Source: a virus. Taken from it: 64,000 bases of DNA. The translations under genes were made by a program, and so were the position numbers. The stretch is taken from positions 26,896 to 90,895 of the IMG/VR virus record IMGVR_UViG_3300013126_001527; one strand, given 5' to 3'. The notes beneath the pieces are model-generated. The model was given only the letters and a program-made list of their open reading frames with translations, was not told where the DNA came from and ran no database searches. Shown piece by piece: positions 10,183-38,337 of this stretch (positions are counted from its first letter, which is position 1; each line of letters starts with the position of its first letter).

Positions 10183-10203
10183 CTTAAAACGAGTTGAATA
10201 ACC

Positions 10204-10734: not shown

Positions 10735-11281
10735 CCAGTTAAACGAAAATTTAGAAATAGGCGATTTGAAACGCTTAATTCACAATGAACTACACATTGA
10801 TGAATACAAGAGTAAAATGGGCGATGATAGCGATATCTGTGTGTTGAGTTTTAAAGTTTCTGGTAAAGAGCCTAGCACAGATTTAGTTAACTTCATTGAA
10901 AAAGGGTACAATTATGTACTCGATGCCGATGTTAGTTCGGGCGAAAAAGAGGGCGGAGACTACTTAGTATTTGTTGAGCTTGATCGTACCTCCAAACTGC
11001 CAGAGCAGATAACGGCAATAATTAATGATATTTTAAATTTAACTGAGCAATCAATAAATGAGTGGCGATTTAAATATCGAAAAAGTACAAAAGAACACCC
11101 GTTAACAGTCGACACACTAGCTAACACTATACCGCTGTCTCCAGAAGACTATCAAAAACGTTTTAAACAAGAGCAGGATGAAATTGATGCTCTTAAGGCG
11201 GCCGCCGGAGTTGAAGTGGATACAGTGGCTCCTACAAATGAATACACAGAAAGTTTGAGGATTGCCGCCGGCATTAGATAA
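10721..11281 (+). CDS. Hypothetical late protein, possible head component
   Basis: 186 aa; N-terminal LNE site; C-terminal LKAAAGV and LRIAAGIR motifs. Confidence 0.7.
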   Translation: MLHSNQLNENLEIGDLKRLIHNELHIDEYKSKMGDDSDICVLSFKVSGKEPSTDLVNFIEKGYNYVLDADVSSGEKEGGDYLVFVELDRTSKLPEQITAIINDILNLTEQSINEWRFKYRKSTKEHPLTVDTLANTIPLSPEDYQKRFKQEQDEIDALKAAAGVEVDTVAPTNEYTESLRIAAGIR

Positions 11282-11305
11282 GCATTTCAATAAAGGACAT
11301 CAACG

Positions 11306-12142
11306 ATGCAAATTACAGCAGAACATATTCAATCATTATTTCCAAAATACAAATACCCAGCAGACCTAGCAGAAGCACTAACAGAATCATTTGACAAGTA
11401 TGATATTAATACTGTTAATCGTGCCGCTGGTTTCTTGGCACAGTGCGGACATGAAAGTGCAGGGTTTACAGTATTGCAAGAAAACCTAAACTATTCAGCC
11501 GACGGGTTGAACAAAATCTTTAAGAAGTATTTTCCAACAGTGGCAGATGCACAACCATATGCTCGTAATCCAGAAAAGATTGCTAACAAGGTATATGGTG
11601 GGCGTATGGGCAATGGTCCAGAATCTAGCGGTGATGGTTACAAATTCCGTGGCCGTGGCGCTATCCAATTAACTGGTCGTGACAACTATACACAGTTTGC
11701 CAAGGCAGTAGGCCTAACCGTTGACGAAGCAGTAGCAGACTTAGAAACACTTGACGGTGCTATTGAATCGGCATGTTGGTTCTGGCAGAAAAACGGACTT
11801 AACGCTATCTGTGATGCAGACGACGTTGTTAAAATGACCAAACGTATCAATGGTGGAACCATCGGCTTAGAAGATCGCAAGAAACACTACGAACATGCTA
11901 AACATGTATTAGGTGGCAGTCATGTAGAAGAATCACACGGTGTTAGTGTAACCACATACGAAACAGTACGTGTTGGCTCTAAAGGTGAAACAGTCAAAGC
12001 TGTGCAGGCTGCACTGGGGCTAACAGCAGATGGCGCATTTGGGCATGGCACAGAAAAAGCAGTTAAAGCATGGCAAACTAAAAATGGCCTTACAGCAGAC
12101 GGCGTAATGGGTCCTAAGAGCCTACAAAAACTATTAGGATAA
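11306..12142 (+). CDS. Endolysin: GH19 domain plus C-terminal peptidoglycan-binding domain
   Basis: FLAQCGHES, ENLNYS, FRGRGAIQLTG, TKRINGG; PG_binding_1 repeats ADGAFG and ADGVMG. Confidence 0.92.
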   Translation: MQITAEHIQSLFPKYKYPADLAEALTESFDKYDINTVNRAAGFLAQCGHESAGFTVLQENLNYSADGLNKIFKKYFPTVADAQPYARNPEKIANKVYGGRMGNGPESSGDGYKFRGRGAIQLTGRDNYTQFAKAVGLTVDEAVADLETLDGAIESACWFWQKNGLNAICDADDVVKMTKRINGGTIGLEDRKKHYEHAKHVLGGSHVEESHGVSVTTYETVRVGSKGETVKAVQAALGLTADGAFGHGTEKAVKAWQTKNGLTADGVMGPKSLQKLLG

Positions 12143-12145
12143 TCT

Positions 12146-12601
12146 ATGTTCTTACTACATTTTTTACCGGATAGTTTCTTACAAACAGTAATCAACATTG
12201 TACTTTTCTCAGGGTTAGGGTTAACTGTAGTGGGTTTTTTCCTAGCAGGATGGATTCCAGGTGCACGCAATTATAAGTCACTTATTCAAATCTTAGGTGT
12301 TACACTATTAGCCGCTGGTATCTACTGGAAGGGTGGCTACGGTGTTGAAATGGAATGGCGTGGCCGAGTAGCTGAACTTGAGGCTAAACTAAAAACAGCA
12401 GAAGAAAAATCACAACAGGTCAATACCGTGATTGAAACCAAAGTAGTTACACAGGTTAAACATATCAAAGATACACAGGTTAAGATACAAAAACAAATTG
12501 TCGAACGAGAAAAGATTATCAACGGTGAATGTGAAGTTCCAGCAGAGGCTATTGAGTTGCTAAACAAAGCTGCTGAACGTCCAACAGGAGAAAACAAATG
12601 A
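12146..12601 (+). CDS. Inner-membrane spanin-like protein
   Basis: N-terminal TM helices, coiled coil and late Cys; directly follows the endolysin. Confidence 0.6.
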   Translation: MFLLHFLPDSFLQTVINIVLFSGLGLTVVGFFLAGWIPGARNYKSLIQILGVTLLAAGIYWKGGYGVEMEWRGRVAELEAKLKTAEEKSQQVNTVIETKVVTQVKHIKDTQVKIQKQIVEREKIINGECEVPAEAIELLNKAAERPTGENK

Positions 12602-12993
12602 GTAATTCAATTAACAAATATATCAAACTATTCGAAGAAGAATTAGCAGGACTGCGTGCTGTTGGCGTATCAGAGCCAGAGGATTCAGAAGAGTCTTCAT
12701 TGCCCGAAGTCAACATTTCATTCCAGCATGATACGGATAATAGCCCTAAAAAATCCGTAATGGTCAACGCAGGTGGAATATACACCGGTGATGCCAACGA
12801 TCTGCGTGATATACTACACGACATGAACGTTCCAATCCCCGACGAAGATGCTCAACCAAACGATTCGGGTGTTTGGGTCAGCGTAGATGAAAACGGTAAG
12901 AGAATCACAGCAATGGCAGATAATGAAAAAGGTGACGAACTGTTAGCTATGTTAAAGAACGCCGGCTTATATAAAGGTGGGCCAGATGCGTAG
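12598..12993 (+). CDS. Hypothetical acidic protein inserted in the lysis cassette
   Basis: 131 aa; N-terminal KYIKLFEE and C-terminal LLAMLKNAGL. Confidence 0.65.
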   Translation: MSNSINKYIKLFEEELAGLRAVGVSEPEDSEESSLPEVNISFQHDTDNSPKKSVMVNAGGIYTGDANDLRDILHDMNVPIPDEDAQPNDSGVWVSVDENGKRITAMADNEKGDELLAMLKNAGLYKGGPDA

Positions 12994-13243
12994 TTTATTA
13001 CTGGTCTTGCTACTTTCAGGTTGTTCAACGCTAGTTCCTGTTAAGGCTAAGTTTCCGGAACTACCCAAAGAGTTGGCTATTGAATGTCCAGACCTAAAAC
13101 AACTACCACCAGATACTAAAAAGCTAAGTGATGTAGTCAGCAACGTAAGTGAAAACTACGGTACCTACTATGAATGCCAAGCACGTAAAGAAGCATGGGT
13201 AGAGTGGTACAAGGCACAGAAACAAATCTACGAGAGCAACTAA
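12986..13243 (+). CDS. Outer-membrane spanin (Rz1-like lipoprotein)
   Basis: Lipobox LLLSGC, Pro-rich mature region, Cys pair. Confidence 0.7.
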   Translation: MRSLLLVLLLSGCSTLVPVKAKFPELPKELAIECPDLKQLPPDTKKLSDVVSNVSENYGTYYECQARKEAWVEWYKAQKQIYESN

Positions 13244-13650
13244 TGAAAAAATTTATTCTTATAGCAGTAGCGACGTTGGCATTAAATGGCTGTGCCATTG
13301 TTGATATCTACAAGCAAGCACGGTGGGATAACAATGAATACAGTCTAGTAAATGAAGTACAAACATCAGCTGCATTAGGTATTGATGTTTGTGCTTATCC
13401 TAAAGATGTTGTTTACTACGTAGATCATATCTATAGTAAAAGTTTAGAGTTTAGAAACTATACTGCAGAAATTGATCGTAACCAAGAAGCAAACAAAATG
13501 GCTGAAAGTTTATTAGCCATTACTAAAGGTTTAAAAGAACGCTACCACAGCGGCGATGAGCCTACACAAAAATACTGTGAACTAAAAATGACAACTATAC
13601 AAACCAGTTCCAGTACTATCAAGCGAGCACTAGGAGCTAAACCAAGATGA
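13243..13650 (+). CDS. Lipoprotein of unknown function
   Basis: MKKFILIAVATLALNGC lipobox. Start at 13243 overlaps the previous stop. Confidence 0.7.
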   Translation: MKKFILIAVATLALNGCAIVDIYKQARWDNNEYSLVNEVQTSAALGIDVCAYPKDVVYYVDHIYSKSLEFRNYTAEIDRNQEANKMAESLLAITKGLKERYHSGDEPTQKYCELKMTTIQTSSSTIKRALGAKPR

Positions 13651-13853
13651 CAACCAGAAACGATGTAGTAGCAGAAGCACAAACATTAGAAAACGAATTT
13701 AAAGCCGGGCGTCTCTCGGCAAGTGAATTAAAAGAATTATTAGAAGATTTAAAGCACAGCAAAGCTATTGTAGCTGCCGCAGGCGACTTAGAAGTTAAAG
13801 CTCAGCTGTTTGAGTTAATTGACGGCATCATCTGTGCTGCTGGCGCTATCTAA
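13647..13853 (+). CDS. Small hypothetical protein
   Basis: 68 aa, coupled by ATGA overlap. Confidence 0.65.
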   Translation: MTTRNDVVAEAQTLENEFKAGRLSASELKELLEDLKHSKAIVAAAGDLEVKAQLFELIDGIICAAGAI

Positions 13854-13889
13854 TAAATATTATTATAATAATCAACAAGGAGTAAGACA

Positions 13890-14180
13890 ATGGCAAAAAC
13901 AGCAGAAGAACGCACATCAGATTGGATGACCACCAAGTGGCGTCCGTTAATGGCAATCACATACATGGCAACAATTTGGTTTGATTTTATTCTTGGACCA
14001 GTTGTTTTTAACGTATTACAATATTGGAATCCGGGTCAGGCGATTACTAGTTGGACAGCACTAACACTACAAGGTGGTGGTTTATATCACATCTCTATGG
14101 GTGCTATTCTAGGTATTGCGGCTTGGACACGTGGCAAGGAAAAAGTAGCTGAATTAGAAAACGGTGGCGCGGGAAAATAG
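13890..14180 (+). CDS. Holin (GTA 3TM-holin-like family)
   Basis: 96 aa; KWRPLMA; two hydrophobic helices; GAILGIAAWTRGKEK; AAGGAG RBS; at the end of the lysis cassette. Confidence 0.7.
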   Translation: MAKTAEERTSDWMTTKWRPLMAITYMATIWFDFILGPVVFNVLQYWNPGQAITSWTALTLQGGGLYHISMGAILGIAAWTRGKEKVAELENGGAGK

Positions 14181-14422
14181 CAGGGTACGAAACAGCCCCT
14201 GAGCAAAATGTTTCAACAGAACCGCAATGGATTGTTACAGATAGCAGCCCAGCGGACAATGTGTCAGTGACTGCACCTGTTGAAGCTGCTGAATCAGAGG
14301 TTGAAGTTCCTGAGGTAGCTGAAACACAAGAATTGTATGACGCACCTGAGGTAGCTGAAACTCCTCAACAGCCCAAAATAGCAGAAGATCCAAATCGTCC
14401 AAAAAGACGTAAAAAATCTTAA
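14171..14422 (+). other. Programmed -1 frameshift site (G GGA AAA) and 81-codon holin extension
   Basis: Heptamer 14171-14177 lies directly before TAG. The -1 frame is open 14153-14422 with no ATG and fills an otherwise empty 240 nt gap. Confidence 0.7.
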
Positions 14423-14445
14423 TCTGGTAGAAAAACAGTAGTAAA

Positions 14446-14478
14446 TAAAAGGGTAAGCATTGACGCTTACCCTTTTTT
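14446..14478 (+). terminator. Intrinsic terminator
   Basis: AAAAGGGTAAGC-attgac-GCTTACCCTTTTTT hairpin with T tract. Confidence 0.8.
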
Positions 14479-14488
14479 ATTATATAAT
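14460..14488 (+). promoter_or_regulatory. Sigma70 promoter for dnaJ
   Basis: TTGACG-17-TATAAT; the -35 box lies in the terminator loop. Confidence 0.75.
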
Positions 14489-14497
14489 ATACTTACT

Positions 14498-15340
14498 ATG
14501 GCAAATGCGTATGAAACATTGGGTGTGCCTAAAGGGGCATCCGAAGAAGAAATTAAAAAGGCTTACCGCAGACTAGCGGCTAAGCATCATCCCGATCGCG
14601 GTGGAGATACTGCTAAGTTCCAAGAGATACAGGGTGCTTATGAAACTCTTACAGATCCACAAAAACGTGCGGCTCATGACAATCCGGGTTTTAATCATGG
14701 CTCTGGCGGATTTGAGTTTCACTTTGGTTCTGGTATGGATCCTAATGATATCTTTGGTCAATTTTTTAATCAACAACAAGGATTTAATCCGTTTCACCAA
14801 CAACGCCAGCAACAACAGCGTAGAAATAAAGATCTACGCATAAACATCAACATCTCTTTAAAAAGCACATTAAATTCTCAAACTAAAACAGTTAGTGTAC
14901 AAACCACCAAAGGTGACAGATTTACTGTAGATGTTCAGATTCCTCGAGGTGTAACTAACGGAACTACTATTAAGTATTCTCGTATGGGGGACAACTTTTT
15001 TGAATCATTGACACGCGGCGACTTATATGTTATAATCAACATACAAACTGATGGTCGATTTGAAATCTATGGGCACAATGTTGTTACTAACTTAACTATT
15101 AACAGTGTTGAGGCAATGTTAGGCACAGAAAAAGAAATACAAGGCGTAGAAGATAATACATTTTTAGTTAAAATACCGCCAGGAACACAGTCGGGTTCAA
15201 AATTTGGTCTTCAAGGTCAAGGATTGTATGACCCTAGGGGCGTAATGCGTGGGGATTTAATTGTTACACTTACAATTAATACTCTTATTCCAACCGAGGA
15301 ACAAATTATCAAATTGAGAGAAATTTGGCCCAATCTATAA
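14498..15340 (+). CDS. dnaJ: DnaJ/CbpA-type co-chaperone without zinc finger
   Basis: J domain with HPD, G/F-rich linker, C-terminal domain with RGDL. Confidence 0.9.
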
Positions 15341-15343
15341 ATA
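15336..15343 (+). promoter_or_regulatory. Late promoter TATAAATA
   Basis: Perfect match just upstream of clpA. Confidence 0.65.
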
Positions 15344-15367
15344 TTTTTAATAACATAAGGTACCTAT

Positions 15368-17665
15368 ATGATTAACAATCCAATAATTGATGCTATTATT
15401 GACCATGCTACTAATTTTGCTAAGGAAAACAAACATAGTTATGTTACACTTGAGCATCTTTTGTATGCTCTAGTCAACAGCGAAGATTTTGGAACTTTAT
15501 TGGACGATTTTGGAGTTGATGTATCAGGGTTAGAAGAAGATATTCATGAATATGTTATTAAACAAACTCATTTAGTTGATGGGTTTAACCAAGAAGTAGC
15601 CCCAAAACGTACACACAGTTTAGAACGTGTATTCAATCGTGCGTTTACTCAGGTGCTGTTCACAGCACGAGAACGAATGGAACCAATTGATTTATTCTTA
15701 AGTATTACACAAGAAACTAACAGTCATGCTGCATATTTCTTAATCAAATGGGGAGCGACTCGTAAACAGATAGTTGAGTTCTATACAAAACTTGTAGGAC
15801 AAACAGCAAACTCAGAGCGTAAAGAAAAGTCTAAAAAACCAGATGCTATTGATCGCATTTTAGATGAACATTGTACTAATTTAAACAAACAGGTGGCAGA
15901 AGGTAAGATTGATCCTGTAATTGGTCGTGAATATGAGTTAGAAGAAATAGCACAGGTACTAGCACGTAGACACAAATCAAATGTGTTAATGATAGGTGAT
16001 CCTGGTGTAGGTAAAACTGCAATCGCCGAAGGATTAGCATATAAGATTGTTAACAATCAAGTTCCTGCGTACCTAAACGATTATATCGTATATAATTTGG
16101 AAATTGGTAGTTTATTGGCCGGTAGCAAATACCGCGGTGAGTTTGAAGAAAAACTCAAAGACGTATTATATGCCCTCAATCAAAAGGGCAAAACAATTTT
16201 GTTTATCGACGAAGCACACCAAATGCATGGTGCTGGTGCAGGAAGTTCTAGTTCTGTTGATTTTGCTAACATGATCAAACCAGCACTGAGTCGAGGTAAT
16301 ATCAAAGTTATTGCCAGCACAACCTTTGAAGAATATACTAAATCTTTTGAAAAAGATCGTGCATTGATGCGTAGATTCTATAAATTATCAATCGATGAAC
16401 CTAGTCCGGCTGTGGCAAAAGAAATCTTGTTTGGGCTGCGTGGGCATTTTGAAGAGTTTCATGGTGGTGTAATAAGCGACGATGCCATTGAATCTGCTGT
16501 TGATTTAAGTGTTCGATATCAGACTGATCGTAGACTTCCGGACAAAGCCATCGATCTTATTGACATGAGTTGTGCTCGTTTGAAGATCAAGTTTGACGAG
16601 TGGGTTGTGGATAAGGAAGAAATTGTTGAGACTATTAGCAAAGCTACTAAGATCCCAATGGAGAATCTTGACAACAAAGAGTCTACCAAAACACTAACTT
16701 CATTGGATGCTAGCGTTAAAGATCGTCTATTCGGGCAAGACTCGGCAGTAGATCAAGTTTTAGAAAAAATCTATATTGCTAAAGCGGGATTAAAATCTCC
16801 AACTAAACCTGTAGGTAGTTTCTTATTTTTAGGTCCAACAGGTACTGGTAAAACAGAACTATGTAAGTTACTAAGTGAAAACCTAAGTATGAAACTAATT
16901 CGCTTTGATATGAGTGAATACCAAGAGAAACACAGTGTAGCTAAACTTATTGGTGCACCTCCGGGATATGTGGGTTACGAAGACGGTAATCTAGGTGGCG
17001 GTTTATTAATCAGCGAAGTTGAACGCAACCCACACTCAATTATCTTGTTAGATGAGATTGAGAAGGCCCACCCAGATGTAAGTAATATTCTATTGAGTAT
17101 CATGGACGAAGGCATGGTTACCAGTTCAAATGGTAAGAAAGCAGATTGCCGGCATGCTATTGTTATTATGACATCAAATTTGGGTGCTGCCGATAATGAA
17201 CGTAATAATATTGGATTTGGACGAAGCTTATCTAAAGACGGGCAAGATGATGATGCTGTTAAGAAATTCTTTAAACCAGAGTTCCGCAATCGGTTAGATG
17301 CAGTGATTAAATTTAATAAACTTGATCAGATGTCAATGAAGAAAATTGTTGTTAAATTTATCAACGAACTTAACGATCTATTGGGAGAACGTCATGTTAA
17401 AATTAATGCAACTGAATCTTTAGTAGATTATCTAGTAGAGGTTGGATTTGATTCTGCAATGGGTGCGAGACCGTTGAATCGAAAGATCAATGAATTAATT
17501 AAAGTCCCCTTAAGTAAAAAGATTCTTTTTGAAAATGTAGAACCGGGTAGCACTGTAACTGTAGATTATTTAGATAGTAATATTGTGTTTACAGTTAGCT
17601 CTCCAACTGTTAATCTATTAGAAAATAAAACAGTTGACGAACATGGTTACATTGTAGTAGAATAA
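15368..17665 (+). CDS. clpA: ClpA ATP-dependent unfoldase
   Basis: Clp N domain; two AAA modules (GDPGVGKT, GPTGTGKT); IGF ClpP-docking loop; no ClpB middle domain; 765 aa. Confidence 0.9.
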   Translation: MINNPIIDAIIDHATNFAKENKHSYVTLEHLLYALVNSEDFGTLLDDFGVDVSGLEEDIHEYVIKQTHLVDGFNQEVAPKRTHSLERVFNRAFTQVLFTARERMEPIDLFLSITQETNSHAAYFLIKWGATRKQIVEFYTKLVGQTANSERKEKSKKPDAIDRILDEHCTNLNKQVAEGKIDPVIGREYELEEIAQVLARRHKSNVLMIGDPGVGKTAIAEGLAYKIVNNQVPAYLNDYIVYNLEIGSLLAGSKYRGEFEEKLKDVLYALNQKGKTILFIDEAHQMHGAGAGSSSSVDFANMIKPALSRGNIKVIASTTFEEYTKSFEKDRALMRRFYKLSIDEPSPAVAKEILFGLRGHFEEFHGGVISDDAIESAVDLSVRYQTDRRLPDKAIDLIDMSCARLKIKFDEWVVDKEEIVETISKATKIPMENLDNKESTKTLTSLDASVKDRLFGQDSAVDQVLEKIYIAKAGLKSPTKPVGSFLFLGPTGTGKTELCKLLSENLSMKLIRFDMSEYQEKHSVAKLIGAPPGYVGYEDGNLGGGLLISEVERNPHSIILLDEIEKAHPDVSNILLSIMDEGMVTSSNGKKADCRHAIVIMTSNLGAADNERNNIGFGRSLSKDGQDDDAVKKFFKPEFRNRLDAVIKFNKLDQMSMKKIVVKFINELNDLLGERHVKINATESLVDYLVEVGFDSAMGARPLNRKINELIKVPLSKKILFENVEPGSTVTVDYLDSNIVFTVSSPTVNLLENKTVDEHGYIVVE

Positions 17666-19178: not shown

Positions 19179-20201
19179 ATGTTTTTACAGCAATTATTTG
19201 AAGCAATAGATAAAAGGCATGCGGCATTCTGTTTTGGTCGTATGAATCCACCTACTATAGGCCATGCACAATTAATCAACACCGTAGCTAAAAGTGCTGC
19301 AGGTGGCGATTACTTTATCTTTACTAGCCAAAGTCATGATGCTAAGAAAAATCCCTTAGACTACAGTACAAAAGTTAAATTCCTTAAAGCCCTATTCCCA
19401 GAATCAGCAGGTCATATTGTACAAGATGCCGGTTTAAAAACTATCATACAAGTAGCGCATTGGTTGTATGCTAAAGGTTATCGTAGTGTTACCTTTGTAG
19501 CTGGTAGCGATCGCCTAGCAGACTTTAAAGAGTTGCTAGAGAAATACAACGGAGTACAAGGTCCAAATGGTTTTTATCAATTTGACGCTATTAATTTTGT
19601 TAGTAGTGGGGATCGCGATCCTGACGGAGAAGGATTGGCCGGAGTAAGTGCTAGTGCTGCACGTGCCGCTGCTAAAGCGGGTGATGAACAGGCATTTGCA
19701 CAAGCAACTGGCGCAGGCGAATTAACTAATCAACTATATCATGCTGTACGTAAAGGTATGAACGTAACTAAAGACTTAAATGAATTTGCCACGGATGGTT
19801 TCAACGGTGGTGATGACGAGGGTTTTAGTCCAGCTATAGCAAAAATGGCAGAAGAAGATGGATTTACCAAAGGTGTTGGGCTAGCTGATGTTGCTACACT
19901 AGCACGAGCGATGGCTATAAACGCTTGGGATACGCAACACGGTGGATTGTACAAACAATATTTCGCTAAAGGGTTTAAGGAAGGTCGCTCAAATAAAGTA
20001 CAGCACGACAATAAACGTTATAATCTCAACTTAACAGTAAACAAGGATGGCTCTATCAGTCAAAGCGTAGCAGAAGATGCCAGCGGCTACATTCCAAAGA
20101 ATAAACGAGAAGCCAAAGACCCACGTTGGTCAAATGCGCTCACTGTAGACGTACACCCAGATACACCTCGTAAGAACATGAAGGCACTTGGTTTGATCTA
20201 A
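19179..20201 (+). CDS. HxGH nucleotidyltransferase (cytidylyltransferase/NMNAT-like) with extra C-terminal modules
   Basis: FGRMNPPTIGH, KNPL, VAGSDR, GVSASAAR; leader MFLQQLFE; internal LNE and VAE junctions. Confidence 0.75.
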   Translation: MFLQQLFEAIDKRHAAFCFGRMNPPTIGHAQLINTVAKSAAGGDYFIFTSQSHDAKKNPLDYSTKVKFLKALFPESAGHIVQDAGLKTIIQVAHWLYAKGYRSVTFVAGSDRLADFKELLEKYNGVQGPNGFYQFDAINFVSSGDRDPDGEGLAGVSASAARAAAKAGDEQAFAQATGAGELTNQLYHAVRKGMNVTKDLNEFATDGFNGGDDEGFSPAIAKMAEEDGFTKGVGLADVATLARAMAINAWDTQHGGLYKQYFAKGFKEGRSNKVQHDNKRYNLNLTVNKDGSISQSVAEDASGYIPKNKREAKDPRWSNALTVDVHPDTPRKNMKALGLI

Positions 20202-20548: not shown

Positions 20549-20707
20549 ATGAAAATCTTTGAAGTAATTACTATTAAAGAAAATGCTAGCATAGGCTCAA
20601 CTGCTTCGGGCGGTGTTGCTACAAGCATGGGCGGCGGTGCTGGTTTTGGTACTAGTATTTTTATGCGCAGAATTCCAAAGAAAACTAAAAAGAGTAAACA
20701 AAAATGA
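20549..20707 (+). CDS. Small probable head-internal peptide (52 aa, not in ORF track)
   Basis: MKIFEVITIKE-NASIGSTASGGVATSMGGG...RRIPKKTKKSKQK; TAAATA 6 nt upstream. Confidence 0.65.
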   Translation: MKIFEVITIKENASIGSTASGGVATSMGGGAGFGTSIFMRRIPKKTKKSKQK

Positions 20708-23619
20708 ATATGAAATCCCTATTAGAAAAGATGATGAAGTTTGCCGGAGAACCTGATCAAACAGCTGGTGATCAAGTGCGCAGTTCCGAAAAGGTCAAAA
20801 AAAGTGGCAAAGACCATCCATTCAAAGGTCGATTAGTTGGCGACAGCATAGAACCGCAGACTAATATGTTAGAAGAACTTAGCCAAGAATCTAAAGACAA
20901 AAACATCGAATGGGCCTTATCAGAGGCATGGGCAGAATTTAAAGAAGCTGCATTTAAAGATACCGCAGAAAAGCGCACTACACGTAAAGGCAGTCGTCCT
21001 AGTCGAGGTCATGAGCCTGTAGCTCGTTATAAAAAAGTAGAAGAAGCCACCCAAGAAGAAATTTGGCAAGGTTGGAAAATTCGCTACGAAACCACGCCTC
21101 AAATTAAAGGACAACCACTACGTTGGATGGTATGGCACACTAAACGAGGCACAGAAAGTGCGCACGAAGGACAGGCAAATACCCCGCAAGAAGCTATCGA
21201 AGCTGCAAAAGCATGGATTCAAAGTGGTGGTAATGCTAAGGAAATCACTACTAGTACAGTAACCATCGACTTTAATGTGAAATTTGCCAACGAAATTGTC
21301 AACGGCAATGATTTTTATGCTAAAATCGTACAAGGACCAACTCTACTAGTTTCAGGTGACGCAAAACCGGGATTCAAACGTAGTCATATTCGTACACAAA
21401 AGAGTAAAGCCACACAAGACACTACGCTATTGCCAATGATTAGCCTGTCAAATTCTGAAGCAACATCTGCAGGATTAAAGGCCCACGGTCGTTATATCTT
21501 AGGCGACACACAACAAATGGAAGATGGTACACTAGCATATCCGTTAATTTATCAAAGCACAGTACAGGCCAAAGGCGATATAATGCGGTTGGGTAAACCT
21601 GGATTGACTGTAGCGATGAACCGAGAAGTTAGTGGCTTAGAAGAAACAGACCAGGGCATCAGTAAAGCTAAGGAAACTGAGTTTCATACTAAATTAGATA
21701 CCCTAGTACACGATACATTTGGTCGCCGTAAAGAAGAAATGAAAGAAGGTTGGGGTCGTGGTCATGACCGCGTTAGCCTACCAGATGAGCCAAGCACATA
21801 TTGGTCAGGTAAAGGCCAACTACAAAAAGAATACGAAGCACTGTACGATCAACTAGTCCCAGCATCAGGTGCGGCAGATACTATTGAAGGTGAAGTACTA
21901 CGTGCGGCCAGTAAGATTGTTTATCGTCACTACAACGATGGTGATGAATTTAATGCTCCAAGTTTTGGCCAACTTGAAGAATTTATTGGCAAGGTTACTA
22001 GTTACGATGACCTAGCACACAAGGCCACAGAATTCGCTCTAAAAGCCAACGGCAACTATCATCCTAACCACGGTTGGGACAGCCTAGACGTTATGGAATA
22101 CGGTCCTGAAGACAACAGTGATGACTATGATGAAGATGACGGCTGGGATGAAGAGGAAGAAGATACTAGCTGGGACCAAGATGACAATGACGAAGATTTA
22201 GATGAAAGCGATAAAGAAGAGTTCAAATCAACTTATAAAAAGTTCAACGACAAAGTTAAACAACAAAAAGAAAAAGGTGTAGCAGAAAGCTACTACAAAT
22301 ATTCTGTAAAAAATCCAGATGGTAAGGGTGGAGTATACCACAAAGCAGAACCTGGTTACACAGACCAAATTATTGCTAAAGATATTGCTAAAGCTAAAAG
22401 AGATAACCCTCGGGCTACTATTCAAGCAACTAAAGATGGTAAACCATTTGACTGGGAAGCTGTATTAGGTGAAGGTATTGTTGATAAAGTTCGTGGTGCT
22501 AATTATAAACGTCTAGCAAAACGTTCATTTGATAAAGCATACGATGCGCATCAAGACTCTATAGACGCACCAAAAACACCAGCAGAAAGAAGATCAGCAC
22601 GTGCTGAATTTAACAAACAATATGACAAAGGTGTTGCTCGTGAAAAACTTGCTAAAGAATTAGGTGAAGGTTGGGAAAGTGGTCCTGAAGAACGTGCCCC
22701 GCGTGAACGTGATCCAGATTGGGAATACGATCAACGTCGCCAAGAGAAGATGGACATTGAAGCTGAGAAAGCTCAAGCACAACGCCCACAAGAACAATAC
22801 TATACTTTAGTAGGTCGTGGTCCTAACTATGAAGCAAACTATGCGTTCCCTGGTGAATATGCTACGCAAGATGAAGCTGTGGCAGCACGTGCTCGTCTAA
22901 TGGCTGATCCTAGTACACCAAACCCACGTGACATAGGTATTAGTAAACGTACACGTTACTTAGACATTAAAGAAGGTCGTGAAACTCCTCTACGTGATAA
23001 AGAAGATTACGCTGCTAAGAAGAAAGCCTTGCAAGACATCCAGTCTGATCCAAGCACAGCGCAAGATTTAGAACTATCAGTAGAAGTTATGCGTAGACTA
23101 GCTGGCTTAAAACAACAGGCTAAAGCTATGGGCCTAGACGAAAGCCGTGCTCACAAGATTTTGGCTCGTAAATTAGCTGACATTGAACGTAAACCTACTG
23201 CTGCCGATACAGACGATGATGCAGCCCGTGCAGAGAAAGCTAAAGCTGATTATGCAAAATATGTAGCTAAGATGAAAAAAGAAAATCCTAATTTTATTCC
23301 TATGTTCAAAATAGATGAATATGGTGCAGATGCTACTACCTCTGCAACTTCGTCAACTATTGATAAAACCAAGGTAAAAGATATAGCGCAGGCAAGCCAA
23401 GCACTAAAGGCCGCAACTGGCAGTACTGCACCTGCACAAAATATTGTAAAAGCAATCGATGCTGCTAGCCAAGGAAAACCAGTTGGACAGCAGGATATGA
23501 AGGCTATAGAACCCCTAATGAAAGACATTGCTACTGTAGCTAGTGCACCTAAATTAGCAGGTCAATTTAGATCTTTAATGCAACAGGTAGATAGAGAACA
23601 AAAACTTCAAGGAAAATAA
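20704..23619 (+). CDS. Modular polyprotein-like probable head-internal protein
   Basis: 971 aa of unrelated short modules separated by VEE, LEE, MKE, LDE, VAE, LGE (x2), IKE, LDE and IDE junctions. Confidence 0.7.
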   Translation: MNMKSLLEKMMKFAGEPDQTAGDQVRSSEKVKKSGKDHPFKGRLVGDSIEPQTNMLEELSQESKDKNIEWALSEAWAEFKEAAFKDTAEKRTTRKGSRPSRGHEPVARYKKVEEATQEEIWQGWKIRYETTPQIKGQPLRWMVWHTKRGTESAHEGQANTPQEAIEAAKAWIQSGGNAKEITTSTVTIDFNVKFANEIVNGNDFYAKIVQGPTLLVSGDAKPGFKRSHIRTQKSKATQDTTLLPMISLSNSEATSAGLKAHGRYILGDTQQMEDGTLAYPLIYQSTVQAKGDIMRLGKPGLTVAMNREVSGLEETDQGISKAKETEFHTKLDTLVHDTFGRRKEEMKEGWGRGHDRVSLPDEPSTYWSGKGQLQKEYEALYDQLVPASGAADTIEGEVLRAASKIVYRHYNDGDEFNAPSFGQLEEFIGKVTSYDDLAHKATEFALKANGNYHPNHGWDSLDVMEYGPEDNSDDYDEDDGWDEEEEDTSWDQDDNDEDLDESDKEEFKSTYKKFNDKVKQQKEKGVAESYYKYSVKNPDGKGGVYHKAEPGYTDQIIAKDIAKAKRDNPRATIQATKDGKPFDWEAVLGEGIVDKVRGANYKRLAKRSFDKAYDAHQDSIDAPKTPAERRSARAEFNKQYDKGVAREKLAKELGEGWESGPEERAPRERDPDWEYDQRRQEKMDIEAEKAQAQRPQEQYYTLVGRGPNYEANYAFPGEYATQDEAVAARARLMADPSTPNPRDIGISKRTRYLDIKEGRETPLRDKEDYAAKKKALQDIQSDPSTAQDLELSVEVMRRLAGLKQQAKAMGLDESRAHKILARKLADIERKPTAADTDDDAARAEKAKADYAKYVAKMKKENPNFIPMFKIDEYGADATTSATSSTIDKTKVKDIAQASQALKAATGSTAPAQNIVKAIDAASQGKPVGQQDMKAIEPLMKDIATVASAPKLAGQFRSLMQQVDREQKLQGK

Positions 23620-29333: not shown

Positions 29334-29873
29334 ATGAAAGCACAAGAATTAATTAGAGCAACAGCAAACACCAAAATCTACTTGGACATGGATGGCGTTC
29401 TTGCTGACTTCTTTGCAGAATACGCAAAACTGGCCGGAGTTAAGTCTGGCAAATACCGAGATATTCCACCTGCTAGTCAAGACCCAACATTAAACAAGAT
29501 GGTTGGCACAGACTTTTTCTATAGATTACCAAAGTTCAGCACTGCTGACAATTTAATTCAGCTGGTCTTAAGTTATGCACCAACATACAACATTTGCAGT
29601 AGTCCCCTGCGTGGCGATCATGCTAACAGTGAGCAGTGGAAACGCGAGTGGATTAAAAAGCACTTAAGTCCGCAACCTAAAGAAATAATTATTACAGGTA
29701 TGAAAGAACGCCATGCTGTTAACGCTGGTGGCAGCCCTAATATCTTAATCGATGATCGAGGCAGTAATATTCTTAAATGGCAAGCTCGCGGAGGTATTGG
29801 TATCAAATATCAAGCAGACGAAGATAGTCTAGACAAAGTAGCAAAAGGATTAATGTTAGCATATGGTTACTAA
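29334..29873 (+). CDS. HAD-family 5'(3')-deoxyribonucleotidase-like protein
   Basis: YLDMDGVLADF, SSP, LIDDR motifs; leader MKAQELI. Confidence 0.85.
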   Translation: MKAQELIRATANTKIYLDMDGVLADFFAEYAKLAGVKSGKYRDIPPASQDPTLNKMVGTDFFYRLPKFSTADNLIQLVLSYAPTYNICSSPLRGDHANSEQWKREWIKKHLSPQPKEIIITGMKERHAVNAGGSPNILIDDRGSNILKWQARGGIGIKYQADEDSLDKVAKGLMLAYGY

Positions 29874-30597
29874 ACTATTAGAAGGTGGTAATATTTTTAA
29901 AACAGCAGATGGTCAACCTGCCACTACACGTATTGCTCGAGATAATGTTGTACCCACAGTGCAATGGTTAGAACAACTCACTGGATTAAATCTTGTAGAC
30001 AATATGCTAGGATCAACTAGTCGCAAAGAAACAAGTGGTGACTTAGACCTAGGTGTAGATAGTACTAAAATTTCTAAAGAAGTATTAATACAGCAACTAC
30101 TTCGTCAAGGTATTCCGCAGACAGATATACGTAAAACAGGTGACAGCGTGCATCTAAAAACTCCTATCTTAGGTGATCCAAGTAACGGATATGTACAAAC
30201 TGACTTTATGTTCAGCGACAACCCACAGTTCCAAAGTTTTAGCTATGCTGGCACTGGCGCAGGCGAGTTCAAAGGTGTGCATCGTAACATCTTGCTGGCC
30301 AGCATTGCCAAAGCACTAGACATGAAATGGAGCCCAAAATTTGGTTTGGTCAACCGAGAAACTAACGAAGTAATTAGCAACAATCCTCAAGAAATAGCTA
30401 AAACTTTAGTCAACGGTACTGTGCAGGATTTGGCATCAGTTGAAACTATAGTAAATAAGATAAAGAACCAAGCAAACTACGAACAACTTGTAGCAGACGC
30501 AAGGGAATATTTTGCTCGTGATAATTTAGTATTGCCAGAGTCGGCACCATTACCAGGCACCGGTGCCTGGTTTAGATTGTGGAAGGATCAACTATGA
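29863..30597 (+). CDS. Pol-beta-fold nucleotidyltransferase-like protein
   Basis: LGS...SGDLDL...VQTDFM triad; leader ending LLE-GGNIF. Confidence 0.55.
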   Translation: MVTKLLEGGNIFKTADGQPATTRIARDNVVPTVQWLEQLTGLNLVDNMLGSTSRKETSGDLDLGVDSTKISKEVLIQQLLRQGIPQTDIRKTGDSVHLKTPILGDPSNGYVQTDFMFSDNPQFQSFSYAGTGAGEFKGVHRNILLASIAKALDMKWSPKFGLVNRETNEVISNNPQEIAKTLVNGTVQDLASVETIVNKIKNQANYEQLVADAREYFARDNLVLPESAPLPGTGAWFRLWKDQL

Positions 30598-31934
30598 GAG
30601 CACGTCAGTTTATATTAGAATACAGCAGAGAAAAGACTGCCACGGTCTTTGGTAATAAACTCGTCGCTGCTGTAAGCAAAGATAAAAGTCATGATACCGC
30701 TATAGGTAAAATACGTGCTTTTATTGATCAAAAGACCAAAGTTGGCAGCGGTATTGAGCCAGAACAGCGTCAACAGATCTTAGATCAGGTCATGGCCATG
30801 TTAGAGTCAGCTGATCCTACCGCTAATAAAGAATATGTACAATGGTTAGCCAAAGTCTACGCCAACGAAGGCGTTATGATGGAAGACCTTGTGAGTAAGA
30901 CTACAGAATGGTTACAAAAGTACGACCTGTACAAAAAGAAAAAGTTCTTTAAAGACAGCGATGCTAAATTGGCCAACATCATGAACTTGTCGTGGCGGGA
31001 CCTATGGGACATCAGTATACGTGCTGACTTTCAAATGCGTGTCCAACAAGCAGAAGAAAAAGCCATGCCCAAGGGCAACGCTGAGCAGGTCTACGAAAAC
31101 GATAAGGTTCGCATTATTATTCCTAAAGATAAAGAAGCTGCCTGCTACTATGGACAGGGTACCACATGGTGTACAGCCAGTACACAAAGTACTAACTATT
31201 TTAACAGCTACAGCAAAGACGGTCCCTTGTATATTCTACTGCCTAAACAGCCCCAGTATGAAGGTGAGAAGTATCAACTACACTTCCCTAGTGGCCAGTT
31301 CATGGATGAGCAGGATCGCAACGTAGATGATATTATAGAACTATTAGACATGCGTTTTGGCAATCTAGTAGACTTCTTCCGTGAGCGTGAACCGCAGATC
31401 AACGATTGGCTGGTGTTTACTCCAGATGAAATACTAGAACCTTTGATCGCTAAGATTAAAACCGCAGTCAACGATCATGTACATGAAAAGGTCAACGAAT
31501 GGGAAGTAGAAGACGACTACTGGTGGGAGTATTTACGTAAACAAGGTTACGTATACCCAGAAGGGCATGAAGAAGAAGGTGGCATTGATTGGGATGCCGT
31601 AGCAGATGCTGACGAAAGTTATACCAGTTGGAACTACGAAGCCAGTGACTACATTAGTAGAATAGTTGGTGCTGTGGATCTATCTCCACAGGAAGTACGC
31701 AATCTAGCAGAGGAAGTAGGTCGTGAATGGGGTGCTGATACCCAGGGCATTGATGACCTAGATAAAATTATGGCCTATGCTATTGAACAGACTAACAACC
31801 GCAACGAGGGTGATGGTGGCGTAGCAGAGTGGATCAATGATCACATCTACATTAAGAAACGTGACGGCCAATGGGATGTCAGCTTGTTGTACACAAACAA
31901 AGACGGCAAGCGTACAGAGTACCCAATACATTAA
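30594..31934 (+). CDS. Probable head-internal protein with acidic C-terminal domain
   Basis: Start MRARQFILE at 30594; ACYYGQGTTWCTA, GPLYIL, KYQLHF core. Confidence 0.7.
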   Translation: MRARQFILEYSREKTATVFGNKLVAAVSKDKSHDTAIGKIRAFIDQKTKVGSGIEPEQRQQILDQVMAMLESADPTANKEYVQWLAKVYANEGVMMEDLVSKTTEWLQKYDLYKKKKFFKDSDAKLANIMNLSWRDLWDISIRADFQMRVQQAEEKAMPKGNAEQVYENDKVRIIIPKDKEAACYYGQGTTWCTASTQSTNYFNSYSKDGPLYILLPKQPQYEGEKYQLHFPSGQFMDEQDRNVDDIIELLDMRFGNLVDFFREREPQINDWLVFTPDEILEPLIAKIKTAVNDHVHEKVNEWEVEDDYWWEYLRKQGYVYPEGHEEEGGIDWDAVADADESYTSWNYEASDYISRIVGAVDLSPQEVRNLAEEVGREWGADTQGIDDLDKIMAYAIEQTNNRNEGDGGVAEWINDHIYIKKRDGQWDVSLLYTNKDGKRTEYPIH

Positions 31935-31935
31935 T

Positions 31936-32385
31936 ATGAGAGCTGAAGAGTTTAATACAAGCAAATTTAATTGGGCAGACTACGCTGATATGCCTACTAA
32001 AGATAAACTTGAACTAATCGAAAGTCTGTACTCGGGATCGAAAAATTTATTTGAGTCCAACGACGCTGAACAAGTTGATTATTTTTTTAATTTACGGGCC
32101 ATGTCTGATCCTGTTGAATTAGACCAAACCTATATTGTAAACTTTCTAGGTTTAATAAACAATCGTGTTTTAACATTACAAGATCCGTTTGTAGGCAAAG
32201 TATTACAACAAGTTGAAGATCAGTTTGAGATTGAATTACCTGACGGTAGAACTGCTATGTTCCCAGACAAATCACTCAGCGATAAGATGGCTACTTCTAT
32301 GTTTTTCTTTGCTGGAAATGTATCGTACGACAAATTTAGAACAACAGTTAAATTAAAATTTAGCAAGGATTTACCAAAGATTTAA
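31936..32385 (+). CDS. Hypothetical protein with capsid-targeting-like leader
   Basis: Start MRAEEF at 31936, immediately after the previous stop. Confidence 0.65.
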   Translation: MRAEEFNTSKFNWADYADMPTKDKLELIESLYSGSKNLFESNDAEQVDYFFNLRAMSDPVELDQTYIVNFLGLINNRVLTLQDPFVGKVLQQVEDQFEIELPDGRTAMFPDKSLSDKMATSMFFFAGNVSYDKFRTTVKLKFSKDLPKI

Positions 32386-32387
32386 AG

Positions 32388-32465
32388 AACACCACCTTAG
32401 GACCTGTTATTCGTAACGGTACGGTGTTGGCGGCTGCTGCCATGGAGGGATGCCAAAAGTGAGCA
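32388..32465 (+). ncRNA. Candidate structured RNA, family unknown
   Basis: GC-rich intergenic segment: AACACC/GGTGTT outer stem, ACC-GTTA-TTCG-TAAC-GGT inner hairpin, TGGCGG/CTGCCA hairpin. Confidence 0.45.
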
Positions 32466-32474
32466 CAGGATATT

Positions 32475-33641: not shown

Positions 33642-33650
33642 ATACTAATT

Positions 33651-38329: not shown

Positions 38330-38337
38330 ATACTATC

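Follow-up and report, generated by a model that had tools for sequence, protein, structure and literature searches.

Does a phage reading frame of 971 amino acids, in which short segments of unrelated composition follow one another, encode one protein or a string of small proteins separated by proteolysis? The frame lies in a window of 64,000 nucleotides, the whole stretch of DNA analysed here. Its source is an uncultured jumbo phage, with a genome of about 350 kb, distantly related to T4. Its kin are Phosso, Atu_ph07 and CBB-type jumbo phages, and not phiKZ. A megablast search of the 16-kb neighbourhood against cultured phages gave no match. The initial annotation viewed the product as a polyprotein cut by the head protease at recurring Glu-ending junctions.

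Modules and joints of the reading frame

The gene (P0001) is a real open frame, free of stops on translation. It starts at Met1 or Met3, and an identical database entry of 969 aa begins at Met3. P0001 is made of about eleven small, unrelated modules, denoted A to K (Table 1). The ten junctions listed in the initial annotation were all found, each in one copy, with the P1 Glu at residues 114, 314, 348, 501, 528, 590, 655, 757, 813 and 872. Invariance of residues at the joints and in module A was scored in family alignment A1. Module A has internal sites that are also conserved (LLE 6–8 and LSE 72–74; L6, L7, E8, L72 and E74 are invariant), and is probably a targeting and propeptide region. The abrupt changes of composition noticed at first reading are evident in the net charge, which is −10 in module D, −22 in its tail (469–501), +3 to +5 in modules G, J and K, and near neutral in the others.

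Table 1. Coordinates of genes, modules and joints in the window (joints are given as the P3–P1 codons; the slash marks the predicted cut)
Feature	Coordinates	Strand	Basis or context
Neighbour gene of the same design: leader MFLQQLFE/A, cytidylyltransferase domain, extra cassettes	19179..20201	+	domain searches
52-aa ORF, stop overlapping the polyprotein start (ATGA)	20549..20707	+	sequence
Putative cassette polyprotein gene P0001, 971 aa	20704..23619	+	open frame, stop-free translation
Module A, residues 1–114, constant N-terminal module	20704..21045	+	N-terminus of 120 family proteins; mostly low pLDDT
Joint 1, V-E-E / A	21037..21045	+	in coil (AlphaFold)
Module B, residues 115–314, globular alpha/beta domain	21046..21645	+	pLDDT 90.4 folded alone
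Joint 2, L-E-E / T	21637..21645	+	within pLDDT<50 segment 309–319
Module C, residues 315–348, single helix (321–348)	21646..21747	+	20 instances, varied contexts
Joint 3, M-K-E / G	21739..21747	+	within pLDDT<50 segment 341–353; E348 invariant
Module D, residues 349–468, plus acidic tail 469–501	21748..22206	+	90 instances, about 75% identical
Joint 4, L-D-E / S	22198..22206	+	after disordered acidic tail 458–499
Module E, residues 502–528, short helix	22207..22287	+	family comparison and AlphaFold
Joint 5 (E/F), V-A-E / S, DNA GTAGCAGAA	22279..22287	+	within pLDDT<50 segment 524–528
Module F, residues 529–590, small alpha/beta domain	22288..22473	+	family comparison and AlphaFold
Joint 6, L-G-E / G	22465..22473	+	break between helices 584–589 and 592–621
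Module G, residues 591–655, helical hairpin	22474..22668	+	13-nt repeat ATTAGGTGAAGGT on both flanks
Joint 7, L-G-E / G	22660..22668	+	within pLDDT<50 segment 654–669; E655 invariant
Module H, residues 656–757, alpha/beta domain, begins GWESGP	22669..22974	+	117 instances; pLDDT about 95
Joint 8, I-K-E / G	22966..22974	+	within pLDDT<50 segment 755–759; E757 invariant
Modules I (758–813), J (814–872), K (873–971), constant C-terminal frame, all helical	22975..23616	+	C-terminus of most family members
Joint 9, L-D-E / S	23134..23142	+	in loop 809–814; E813 invariant
Joint 10, I-D-E / Y	23311..23319	+	within pLDDT<50 segment 870–887; E872 invariant

The AlphaFold2 model of P0001 (pLDDT 72, pTM 0.34) resembles beads on a string, and the independent domains that had been anticipated are predicted in it, modules B and H among them. 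Six of the ten joints fall in segments of pLDDT below 50, although such segments cover no more than 19.5% of the residues, and all ten lie in coil or at the end of a helix.

None of the modules has a recognisable function in Pfam, PHROG, PDB, Foldseek or VIA-align searches. No Pfam or PHROGs family was found, at E up to 5, for the whole of P0001 or eight separate pieces. PDB sequence searches with P0001 and with a 38-sequence profile of module B gave nothing significant, the sole match having E = 0.33. In the PDB, Foldseek matched the full model only to PCNA-like structures, and weakly (E ≥ 2.6e-3, probability ≤ 0.41, rmsd about 16). The best VIA-align match of module B among 48,161 chains (Z 6.9) covers a sub-domain of 62 residues, and is within the range of common arrangements. 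The module B fold is similar to that of uncharacterised rhizobiophage proteins. For module D the ESM Atlas gave no usable match (all TM below 0.5). In the phage collection D is the only P0001 module matched; stand-alone homologues, complete with acidic tail, reside in Ralstonia phage RP13 and in Maribacter phages.

Placement of the motif and exchange of cassettes

The motif [LIVM]xE is present at each module boundary of P0001. Its total is ordinary (16 copies, 13.9 ± 3.4 expected); its placement, unlike its total, is not due to chance. Inside modules B to K the motif is found twice, against 9.2 expected, and control motifs are not depleted. Across the family, observed and expected interior values are 0.37 and 1.79 in B, 0.46 and 1.32 in D, 0.09 and 1.08 in H, 0.03 and 0.62 in I, with no consistent depletion of D, K or Q control motifs, and [LIVM]xE is enriched in module A (3.05, 1.69 expected). 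Its avoidance inside modules argues for selection keeping the modules whole.

At least 1,253 cluster representatives carry one or more P0001 modules. Family members share a frame in which module A comes first, variable cassettes follow, and I-J-K close the protein, as in the orders A-x-H-D-x-F..., A-x-F-D-x-H-I-J-K and A-H-x-I-J-K. Cassettes are reordered, lost, or present as stand-alone genes. Module F precedes D in P0007 and follows it in P0014; module G stands alone in P0209 and P0223, and is joined to a cytidylyltransferase in P0226; module B is found in stand-alone genes, as well as at the C-terminus of other proteins. Modules in different orders and with different neighbours, bounded by Glu sites, are what the initial annotation had proposed to look for. 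The homologues are not colinear, and their breakpoints coincide with the Glu sites.

The coincidence was measured by an all-against-all BLAST of 228 family proteins, in which homology breakpoints coincide with [LIVM]xE at about ten times the frequency seen for control motifs; family members share ancestry, so that counts made over them are not counts of independent events. HSPs end exactly at the P1 Glu of the motif in 10.9% of cases and start at P3 in 14.3%, while same-offset values for [LIVM]xD/K/Q/A, [KR]xE, [DE]xE and [FYW]xE are mostly about 1% and reach 2.8% at most. No peak was observed for [AG]xE. The eight residues before module starts make up 253 distinct sequences. P1 is Glu in 227 of them (90%), and in 199 (79%) this goes together with V, L, I, M or F at P3. 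Over all 253 contexts P3 is V in 71, L in 63, I in 34, M in 19 and F in 15, and P2 is free; the contexts that lack the P1 Glu, about 10%, or the full motif, about 21%, count against the rule. Upstream of module H, Glu occupies P1 in all of the 76 distinct contexts.

Gains and losses of sequence follow the same pattern. The genes of two sibling genomes, G001 and G002, are 92% identical and differ solely by cassettes of 53 and 85 aa, each of which begins directly after xE and finishes in [V/I]xE. Among 190 distinct large indels, at least 65 are bounded by the motif on both sides, against 0–2 when the P1 Glu is swapped for D, K or Q. The range of positions allowed in this test is strict, and rows scored 'NO' frequently show a nearby Glu site, offset by a few residues; many true cases are thus missed, and 65/190 is a lower bound. 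These comparisons show that cassettes are gained, lost and rearranged in evolution at the joints.

The same joints may be read at the DNA level. P0001 could be an uncut multidomain protein of the polyvalent type, in which the x-E/G and x-E/S joints are recombination scars, or preferred sites, offering microhomology at GAA-GGT or GAA-AGC. The exact 13-nt repeat ATTAGGTGAAGGT around module G is in keeping with this, and had been correctly noticed: the window contains just two copies of it, at 22464 and 22659, where 0.01 are expected. Junction codons are more uniform than the codon usage of the gene predicts (61 identical pairs, 43.0 ± 7.6 expected, P = 0.001), and the P1 codon is GAA at all ten joints. 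What is conserved at the joints is a class of residues, however, and not DNA, P3 being V, L, I, M or F and P2 free. The ends of the two recent sibling indels have GAA alone in common. Scars also leave unexplained the depletion of the motif inside modules, its enrichment in module A, and the occurrence of the same motif at the end of the leaders of single cassettes (see below). An uncut protein is improbable. The related suggestion, that junction DNA acts as microhomology for cassette swapping, may hold: codon uniformity and the repeat around module G weakly favour it, the fresh indels do not. The sequence GTAGCAGAA was also said to mark a junction in the gene at 19179; it is found at 20067 in that gene, a true cassette joint by orthologue comparison. 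As a special DNA signal it was rejected, since it is made of preferred codons and, its seven in-frame copies notwithstanding, 28 nine-mers are at least as frequent.

Genomic setting, leaders and protease

P0001 resides in an island of accessory genes (DnaJ, ClpB, a nuclease), not in a head module. At this fixed locus the cassette content changes, and neighbouring genes keep 50–80% identity. Other genes of the island share the design. The 52-aa ORF features a leader, MKIFEVITIKE/N, followed by a Gly/Ser-rich peptide and a basic tail, and has positional counterparts of the same design in two sibling genomes. In the gene at 19179, an LxE joint has received further cassettes, about 100 aa in all, that terminate in VAE; Glu sites delimit this insert, and the orthologues measure 238 and 244 aa. 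The cassettes of the P0001 family occur as single genes with their own leader, similar to the T4 capsid-targeting sequence (CTS), or attached to other leader-bearing genes of the island. Leaders of stand-alone cassettes are MKTFKSFVNE/G (G), MRAKEFLNKLRE/GWESGP (H), MRAKHFITE/Y (B) and MKTLKDYLKE/S (D). The N-terminus of P0001, M(NM)KSLLE/K, has none of the aromatic residues found in the T4 CTS. In T4, the ip and alt genes likewise sit outside the head cluster. No exact copy of the T4 late promoter TATAAATA was found upstream of P0001, and its count in the window is at chance level (6, 7.7 expected).

Neither a head module nor a prohead protease was matched in the contig itself, which is 26% complete. 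Sibling G001, which holds a P0001 orthologue in conserved synteny, has a head module ordered as in T4: portal, a 74-aa protein (MNLLE...), a 260-aa acidic protein (MNKYEQLIE...) and a Peptidase_S77. This protease, beside the portal, belongs to the gp21 family (PF03420, E = 1.3e-20; phrog_207, 1.6e-40). A major capsid protein was looked for with PF07068, which was not matched in five sibling records, all of which are fragments. The T4 CTS is MKTYQEFIAE (PMC8442874). Proteases of the T4 type cut after Glu, LIE-9 fits the gp21 cleavage logo, and positions 8 and 10 of the CTS determine processing (PMC9026906, PMC5694885).

Together, the gp21-family protease of the sibling, the avoidance of the motif inside modules, the CTS-like leaders and the position of the joints in predicted linkers support the initial proposal of a head protease. 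As the joints fit the rule of T4-type head proteases, and relatives gain, drop and reorder modules at them, P0001 is probably packaged and cut: a capsid-targeted cargo polyprotein, from which the prohead protease would release separate small proteins. The precursor would enter the assembling prohead through module A, whose M(NM)KSLLE terminus resembles the leaders of the head-core proteins of the phage; no homology was found between module A and the head-core proteins of the sibling. Once activated, the T4 gp21-type protease would cut after Glu at exposed [V/L/I/M/F]-x-E joints, a step suggested by the placement of the motif, its avoidance elsewhere, and the family of the sibling protease. Module A, which has several sites, would be chopped like a propeptide, and B to K, devoid of internal sites, freed as about ten proteins of 27–200 residues. 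By analogy with T4 internal proteins, these would stay inside the head alongside the DNA, and probably accompany it into the host.

Another enzyme might cut the joints, either a host protease or the M78/DUF6782-like metallopeptidase encoded at 38338–39540, in which case processing would be cytoplasmic and packaging not required. A putative metallopeptidase domain is indeed present in the same island, and embedded zincin-like peptidases have been proposed to free polyvalent proteins (PMC5512222). The matches to this peptidase are weak, with E about 6e-4, below the Pfam cut-off, and the gene has a leader of the same kind, MNLYEMFE, so that it looks like cargo rather than processor. Moreover, proteases of the T4 gp21 family are documented to cut after Glu in a hydrophobic-x-Glu context, and this family is represented in the sibling genome. 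Cleavage by an enzyme other than the prohead protease is the least probable of the readings considered.

Cutting by the head protease may serve a different end. P0001 could be a disposable component of the scaffold or core, like T4 gp22, gp67 and gp68, cut so that its pieces exit and make room for DNA, the modules being idle afterwards. Charged residues, helices and Glu sites abound in P0001, as in the 260-aa acidic protein adjoining the protease of the sibling. The T4 core proteins, however, have their genes in the head module, between those for portal and major capsid protein, and are broken down throughout into small peptides, whereas the P0001 orthologue in G001 is about 120 kb away from the head module, and the motif is avoided inside modules. 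Modules B and H are predicted as well-folded domains (pLDDT 90 and about 95), and conserved modules survive as genes of their own and in phages of unrelated type. The turnover of cassettes next to neighbours 50–80% identical is also unlike a structural scaffold, a role which is unlikely for P0001.

Comparison with known systems

Injection of proteins alongside phage DNA is classically illustrated by the internal proteins of T4. These resemble the proposed cargo in several traits: a short leader, clear in the stand-alone cassettes, that ends in aliphatic-x-Glu and is followed by a small residue, cargo otherwise unrelated in sequence, genes located outside the head cluster, a gp21-family protease in the lineage, as in sibling G001, and a fast-evolving repertoire, IP genes being variable among T-even phages. 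IPI–III have no sequence similarity to P0001. T4 internal proteins are single proteins which undergo one cut; P0001 family members have up to eleven cassettes in a frame with a site after each, cassettes move between genes, and a conserved N-terminal module of 114 residues takes the place of the 10-residue CTS. P0001 departs from T4 CTS cargo in having ten conserved inter-module sites, in addition to those inside module A, in place of the single cut that removes a leader. Recent work established that T4 Ip1-3 inhibit Type IV restriction enzymes specifically (PMC12373910), and by analogy counter-defence would be the most likely role of the modules.

Polyvalent proteins, described in phages and conjugative elements by Iyer, Burroughs, Anand, de Souza and Aravind in 2017 (PMC5512222), similarly combine many unrelated domains in one polypeptide, show extensive domain mosaicism, and have been proposed to be delivered with DNA and released by proteolysis. 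They feature recognisable conflict domains (zincin-like peptidase, DdrB-type ParB, lysozyme, ArdA, DarA-N), the zincin-like peptidase, often embedded, being the proposed cutter. P0001 has neither a Pfam domain nor an embedded peptidase, and its joints carry instead an explicit short site, predicted to be cut by a protease whose gene lies elsewhere. The inner-body and ejection proteins of phiKZ, 201phi2-1 and SPN3US also reside inside the head and are processed by a T4-related protease C-terminal to Glu, some having long propeptides with multiple sites. Their motif has a small P3 residue (A/S/G-x-E), in contrast to V, L, I, M or F in the P0001 family, and they are colinear paralogues rather than shuffled cassette arrays. 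Eukaryotic RNA viruses also encode several proteins in one frame, cleaved at a short conserved motif; here the virus is a DNA phage, the enzyme would be that of capsid maturation acting within the prohead, and the modules are accessory and interchangeable, not a core replication set.

The literature search retrieved no paper describing this polyprotein. If the preferred reading of P0001 as packaged and cut cargo is correct, a large group of uncultured jumbo phages would have multiplied the principle of T4 internal proteins, obtaining about ten small proteins from one gene. The protease site would at the same time be a standard connector for the exchange of cassettes between genes and phages. 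A family of over a thousand protein clusters devoid of annotation would find its explanation, and a rule based on a leader, [VLIMF]-x-E joints and interior motif avoidance would predict capsid cargo from the sequence by itself. The modules would make up a catalogue of candidate counter-defence proteins, and the gene a naturally occurring model for loading phage heads with foreign proteins. More tentatively, and with somewhat less than even likelihood, giant T4-related phages may draw plug-in capsid cargo from a shared pool of cassettes with a standard protease-site joint, deployed as single genes, appendages to enzymes, or polyproteins. Exchange at the joints would quickly re-equip the set of injected proteins, as for instance inhibitors of defences against modified DNA. 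DNA phages would then have a polyprotein strategy of their own, a combinatorial repertoire for the arms race with their hosts, and a design rule, supplied by nature, by which any chosen protein could be brought into capsids.

The polyprotein gene and its modular family

The gene for P0001, the cassette polyprotein, is an open frame of 971 codons without interruption; the protein collection holds an identical entry of 969 aa, which starts at Met3. The source is a single IMG/VR virus record of 90.9 kb, 26% complete according to CheckV, and the phage genome should therefore measure roughly 350 kb. Nearly all genes of the record lie on the plus strand. For the family-B DNA polymerase, the nearest matches come from jumbo myoviruses, namely Sinorhizobium phage Phosso (51%), Agrobacterium phage Atu_ph07 (47%), Vibrio phage 2.275.O, Pectobacterium CBB and Serratia BF, all distant relatives of T4. 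The polyprotein gene is located outside any head module. Its neighbours encode DnaJ, a ClpB-like ATPase, a glycosyltransferase-like product, a cytidylyltransferase, a 759-aa glycine-rich protein and a non-specific endonuclease; an NT5C nucleotidase, an amidoligase, a weak M78-like peptidase and an Fe/Mn superoxide dismutase are encoded farther away. DnaJ (J domain plus C-terminal domain) adjoins a 765-aa ClpB/ClpA-type double AAA+ protein directly upstream of the cargo island, in a synteny kept in two sibling genomes; the pair might conceivably assist packaged or ejected proteins that are unfolded. Upstream of the window, about a dozen tightly packed genes of 150–200 aa come after two large fibre or structural genes; searches with two of them yielded weak hits, to families of tail fibres and of tail-fibre assembly.

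P0001 is divided into modules A to K by ten joints, with the P1 glutamate (the residue preceding the putative cut, denoted by a slash below) at positions 114, 314, 348, 501, 528, 590, 655, 757, 813 and 872. A word-indexed search retrieved 99 relatives, 537–1,624 aa long and encoded by contigs that measure up to 361 kb, and an exhaustive HMMER search (E <= 0.001) 1,253 cluster representatives. Matches to P0001 are piecewise, and their ends recur at residues 112–115, 312–316, 346–349, 468, 524–528, 588–591, 648–656, 754–761, 805–814 and 869. According to module HMMs, the family frame is made by an N-terminal A, a variable middle hosting many cassettes not represented in P0001, and a C-terminal I-J-K, in orders such as A-x-H-D-x-F-x-I-x-K, A-x-F-D-x-H-I-J-K and A-H-x-I-J-K. 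Every module of P0001 is also found alone or within other proteins: stand-alone genes encode A (118–149 aa), B (207 aa), G (76 and 99 aa), H (159 aa) and J-K (174 aa). Module D, with a strongly acidic C-terminal tail, stands alone in Ralstonia phage RP13 and Maribacter phages, cultured phages of quite different types, where it is annotated as hypothetical. A second class of at least 20 polyproteins, including P0006, P0016, P0022, P0023 and P0028, lacks module A, starts with MRAKQF..[VI]xE/A.GDGD and shares its cassette pool (D, H, I and others) with the first.

The initial annotation had suggested looking for independent domains by structure prediction. Folded units match modules in the AlphaFold2 model of P0001 (82-sequence alignment; mean pLDDT 72, pTM 0.34), a pattern which, for a predicted structure, means confident domains in a mutual arrangement that is not fixed. 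Units coincide with B (116–305), D (helices 364–447), F (531–589), G (a hairpin, 592–652) and H (673–752); I, J and K are helical. Six joints (314, 348, 528, 655, 757, 872) fall within segments of pLDDT < 50; these segments account for 19.5% of the chain (binomial estimate for the overlap ~0.006). Joint 501 lies two residues past a disordered acidic tail, and joints 114, 590 and 813 in loops between elements. Folded alone, module B reaches a pLDDT of 90.4 and resembles uncharacterised proteins of rhizobiophages phiM12, RHph_Y68 and AF3 (Foldseek E 1e-5 to 6e-4, TM 0.37–0.50); among solved structures, no convincing match to module B or to the full model was found.

Joints and cassette turnover

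The ten joints named in the initial annotation are all present, each once. The total of [LIVM]-x-E triplets in P0001 is ordinary (16 versus 13.9 +/- 3.4 in composition-preserving shuffles), and the bare count is therefore no proof. Their distribution is uneven: ten are joints, four lie in module A, and two in the interior of modules B–K, where 9.2 are expected. Control triplets ([LIVM]xD, xK, xQ, E-x-[LIVM], [AGS]xE) are not depleted inside B–K. Glutamates 348, 655, 757, 813 and 872 are invariant in a 16-sequence alignment. Family-wide, the motif is depleted in modules B (0.37 seen, 1.79 expected), D (0.46, 1.32), H (0.09, 1.08) and I (0.03, 0.62) and enriched in A (3.05, 1.69), while control triplets behave normally. 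Such depletion in the cargo and enrichment in A would follow from cleavage at exposed sites, if the cargo has to survive and the leader to be destroyed.

Breakpoints were analyzed by all-against-all BLAST of 228 family proteins, each given a weight of one, considering internal HSP ends. For [LIVM]xE, 10.9% of the HSP ends coincide with the P1 Glu and 7.1% with the next residue, and 14.3% of the HSP starts coincide with P3; at the same offset, seven control motifs ([LIVM]xD/K/Q/A, [KR]xE, [DE]xE, [FYW]xE) mostly score ~1%, 2.8% at most. Among 253 distinct 8-residue contexts directly preceding module starts, P1 is Glu in 227 (90%), accompanied by V, L, I, M or F at P3 in 199 (79%). P3 is V in 71, L in 63, I in 34, M in 19 and F in 15; P2 is free, and P1' is mainly Gly or Ser. 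Module H alone has 76 different upstream contexts, all with P1 Glu.

Two sibling virus records keep the gene order around the polyprotein (DnaJ, ClpB, glycosyltransferase-like gene, 148-aa gene, cytidylyltransferase, 106-aa gene, polyprotein, and a 148-aa gene on the minus strand), and shared genes are 50–80% identical. Over 961 aligned residues, the sibling polyproteins (1,102 and 961 aa) share 92% identity, the sole differences being insertions of 53 and 85 residues, which start right after x-E and finish in [V/I]-x-E (...SKEVNE/HGDQ...PKVKE/GWES versus ...SKDVEE/GWES; ...RNRLGE/TKAI...DGISE/GSET versus ...RNRLGE/GSET). Of 190 distinct large indels in the family, 65 are bounded on both sides by [LIVMF]xE when a tight tolerance is applied, versus 0–2 when P1 Glu is replaced by D, K or Q; the count is 100 for x-x-E, where x-x-D reaches 13 and x-x-K 10. 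Reordered modules, breakpoints and indels, all read from sequence comparisons, thus support the main line of the initial annotation, in which P0001 is a polyprotein made of modules, its joints are of the protease type, and cassettes turn over at them.

Cassettes are found also in other genes. The cytidylyltransferase, NMN-adenylyltransferase-like and led by MFLQQLFE/A, measures 340 aa in the window, and its sibling copies 238 and 244 aa. An LxE joint is where the ~100 extra residues are inserted; they are preceded by ...KGM..LxE/, followed by the conserved tail SGYIPKNK, and split internally by LNE/, MAE/, FKE/ and VAE/; the claim that a VAE junction marks this gene was therefore correct. P0226, from another phage, is the same enzyme with module G at the C-terminus (joint GIQE/G), and window genes 24126 and 39507 have short cassettes in common with family members. 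Cassettes therefore move between genes.

It had been further proposed that junction DNA may act as microhomology for swapping, and on this the evidence is mixed. In favour, the 13-nt repeat ATTAGGTGAAGGT occurs in exactly two copies, as described, and encodes L-G-E-G on either side of module G (residues 591–655). Junction codons are also more uniform than expected: identical-codon pairs number 61 versus 43.0 +/- 7.6 from the gene's own codon usage (P = 0.001), and 16 versus 7.3 for P3 and P1' codons alone (P = 0.004). Against the proposal, GAA is the sole DNA common to the ends of the two recent sibling indels. Boundaries at joints could also arise from selection alone, as the cargo stays fully intact only if insertions are in frame and at cleavable linkers. 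GTAGCAGAA marks the E/F joint and also encodes residues 297–299 of the cytidylyltransferase. It occurs at seven sites in the window, all on the plus strand and in frame as Val-Ala-Glu, versus ~1.6 expected from 13 VAE tripeptides and codon usage. It was discarded as a remarkable 9-mer, being built from preferred codons; since 28 nine-mers equal or exceed its frequency, codon bias probably explains the seven occurrences.

Location of the features described in the text
Feature	Location	Strand	Remarks
Packed genes of 150–200 aa	L001:9210-15423 (genome bases 9210-15423)		upstream of window
DnaJ and ClpB/ClpA-type genes	window 14498-17665	+	
Cytidylyltransferase	window 19179-20201	+	
52-aa ORF	window 20549-20707	+	
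P0001 polyprotein	window 20704-23619	+	
ATTAGGTGAAGGT	window 22464-22476, 22659-22671		
GTAGCAGAA	window 6816, 13668, 20067, 22279, 42056, 44273, 57168	+	
Leader-bearing stretch	window 29334-40721	+	
Gene 29334			looser leader MKAQELI; NT5C nucleotidase
Gene 29863			looser leader MVTKLLE
Gene 30594			clear leader MRARQFILE
Gene 32475			clear leader MRARDFIKE
Gene 33651			begins MRYEQIKPLLDE; amidoligase
Gene 38338			looser leader MNLYEMFE; weak M78-like peptidase
Gene 39537			clear leader MKASDFLNE
Gene 40188			clear leader MRAQDFLTE; Fe/Mn superoxide dismutase
Head module, sibling G001	L021:16622-19902		
Module D, RP13 ORF246	L025:1492-1953		acidic tail
Module D, Maribacter phage Colly_1 gene 8	L026:1498-2109		acidic tail

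Leaders, putative cargo and the T4 system

Single-cassette genes feature leaders similar to the T4 capsid-targeting sequence (CTS), MKTYQEFIAE (PMC8442874), which stop exactly at the module start: MKTFKSFVNE/G (module G), MRAKEFLNKLRE/GWESGP (H), MRAKHFITE/Y (B) and MKTLKDYLKE/S (D). MRAKQF-type leaders are found also at the N-terminus of window genes 30594, 32475, 39537 and 40188. Several otherwise unrelated genes of the stretch at 29334-40721 start with T4-CTS-like leaders, and together they are candidates for a set of enzymes packaged in the capsid. A 52-aa ORF, the stop of which overlaps the polyprotein start (ATGA), consists of a leader (MKIFEVITIKE/N), a Gly/Ser-rich peptide and a basic tail; ORFs of 55 aa with the same position and design (MKITDIIKRPDLTE/DAT...KKRKTK) are present in two sibling genomes, and the 52-aa ORF is probably a real small gene for a leader-tagged peptide.

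A protease site explains the joints better than a recombination scar. What is conserved is the type of residue (hydrophobic at P3, any at P2, Glu at P1) and not the DNA; the avoidance of the motif inside cargo modules, the leaders of single-cassette genes and of the second polyprotein class, and the gp21-type protease of a sibling point the same way. The joint rule, as a sequence motif, matches the family of gp21, the T4 prohead protease. According to a review of the T4 head, LIE-9 fits the gp21 cleavage logo, and in the 10-residue T4 CTS processing is determined by positions 8 and 10, Asp at position 10 blocking it (PMC9026906). In giant phages, related proteases likewise cleave behind Glu, yet their P3 is a small residue (PMC5694885), and the phiKZ-type motif is not followed by the joints. 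At the end of the 218.9-kb contig of sibling G001, the genes of a head module follow the T4 order: portal (phrog_213), a protein of 74 aa starting with MNLLE, a very acidic one of 260 aa starting with MNKYEQLIE, and a protease of the Peptidase_S77/gp21 family (PF03420, E = 1.3e-20; phrog_207, 1.6e-40), partial at the contig end. The 74-aa and 260-aa proteins look like gp67/gp68 counterparts with the same kind of leader.

The T4 CTS and gp21 cargo system is the nearest known, and has the logic, and probably the enzyme family, in common with the P0001 family. The latter differs in stringing numerous cassettes, each with a site of its own, into one reading frame, in the long conserved N-terminal module and in the exchange of cassettes between genes. 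A full-text literature search found no description of such arrays. P0001 was ruled out as a polyvalent protein sensu Iyer et al., as it features none of their domains and no embedded peptidase. We infer that the modules are cleaved apart, packaged, injected and functional. T4 Ip1-3 have only the leader in common and act as inhibitors of Type IV restriction enzymes, a different one for each (PMC12373910); because of this analogy, a counter-defence role is the most plausible guess for the modules of P0001.
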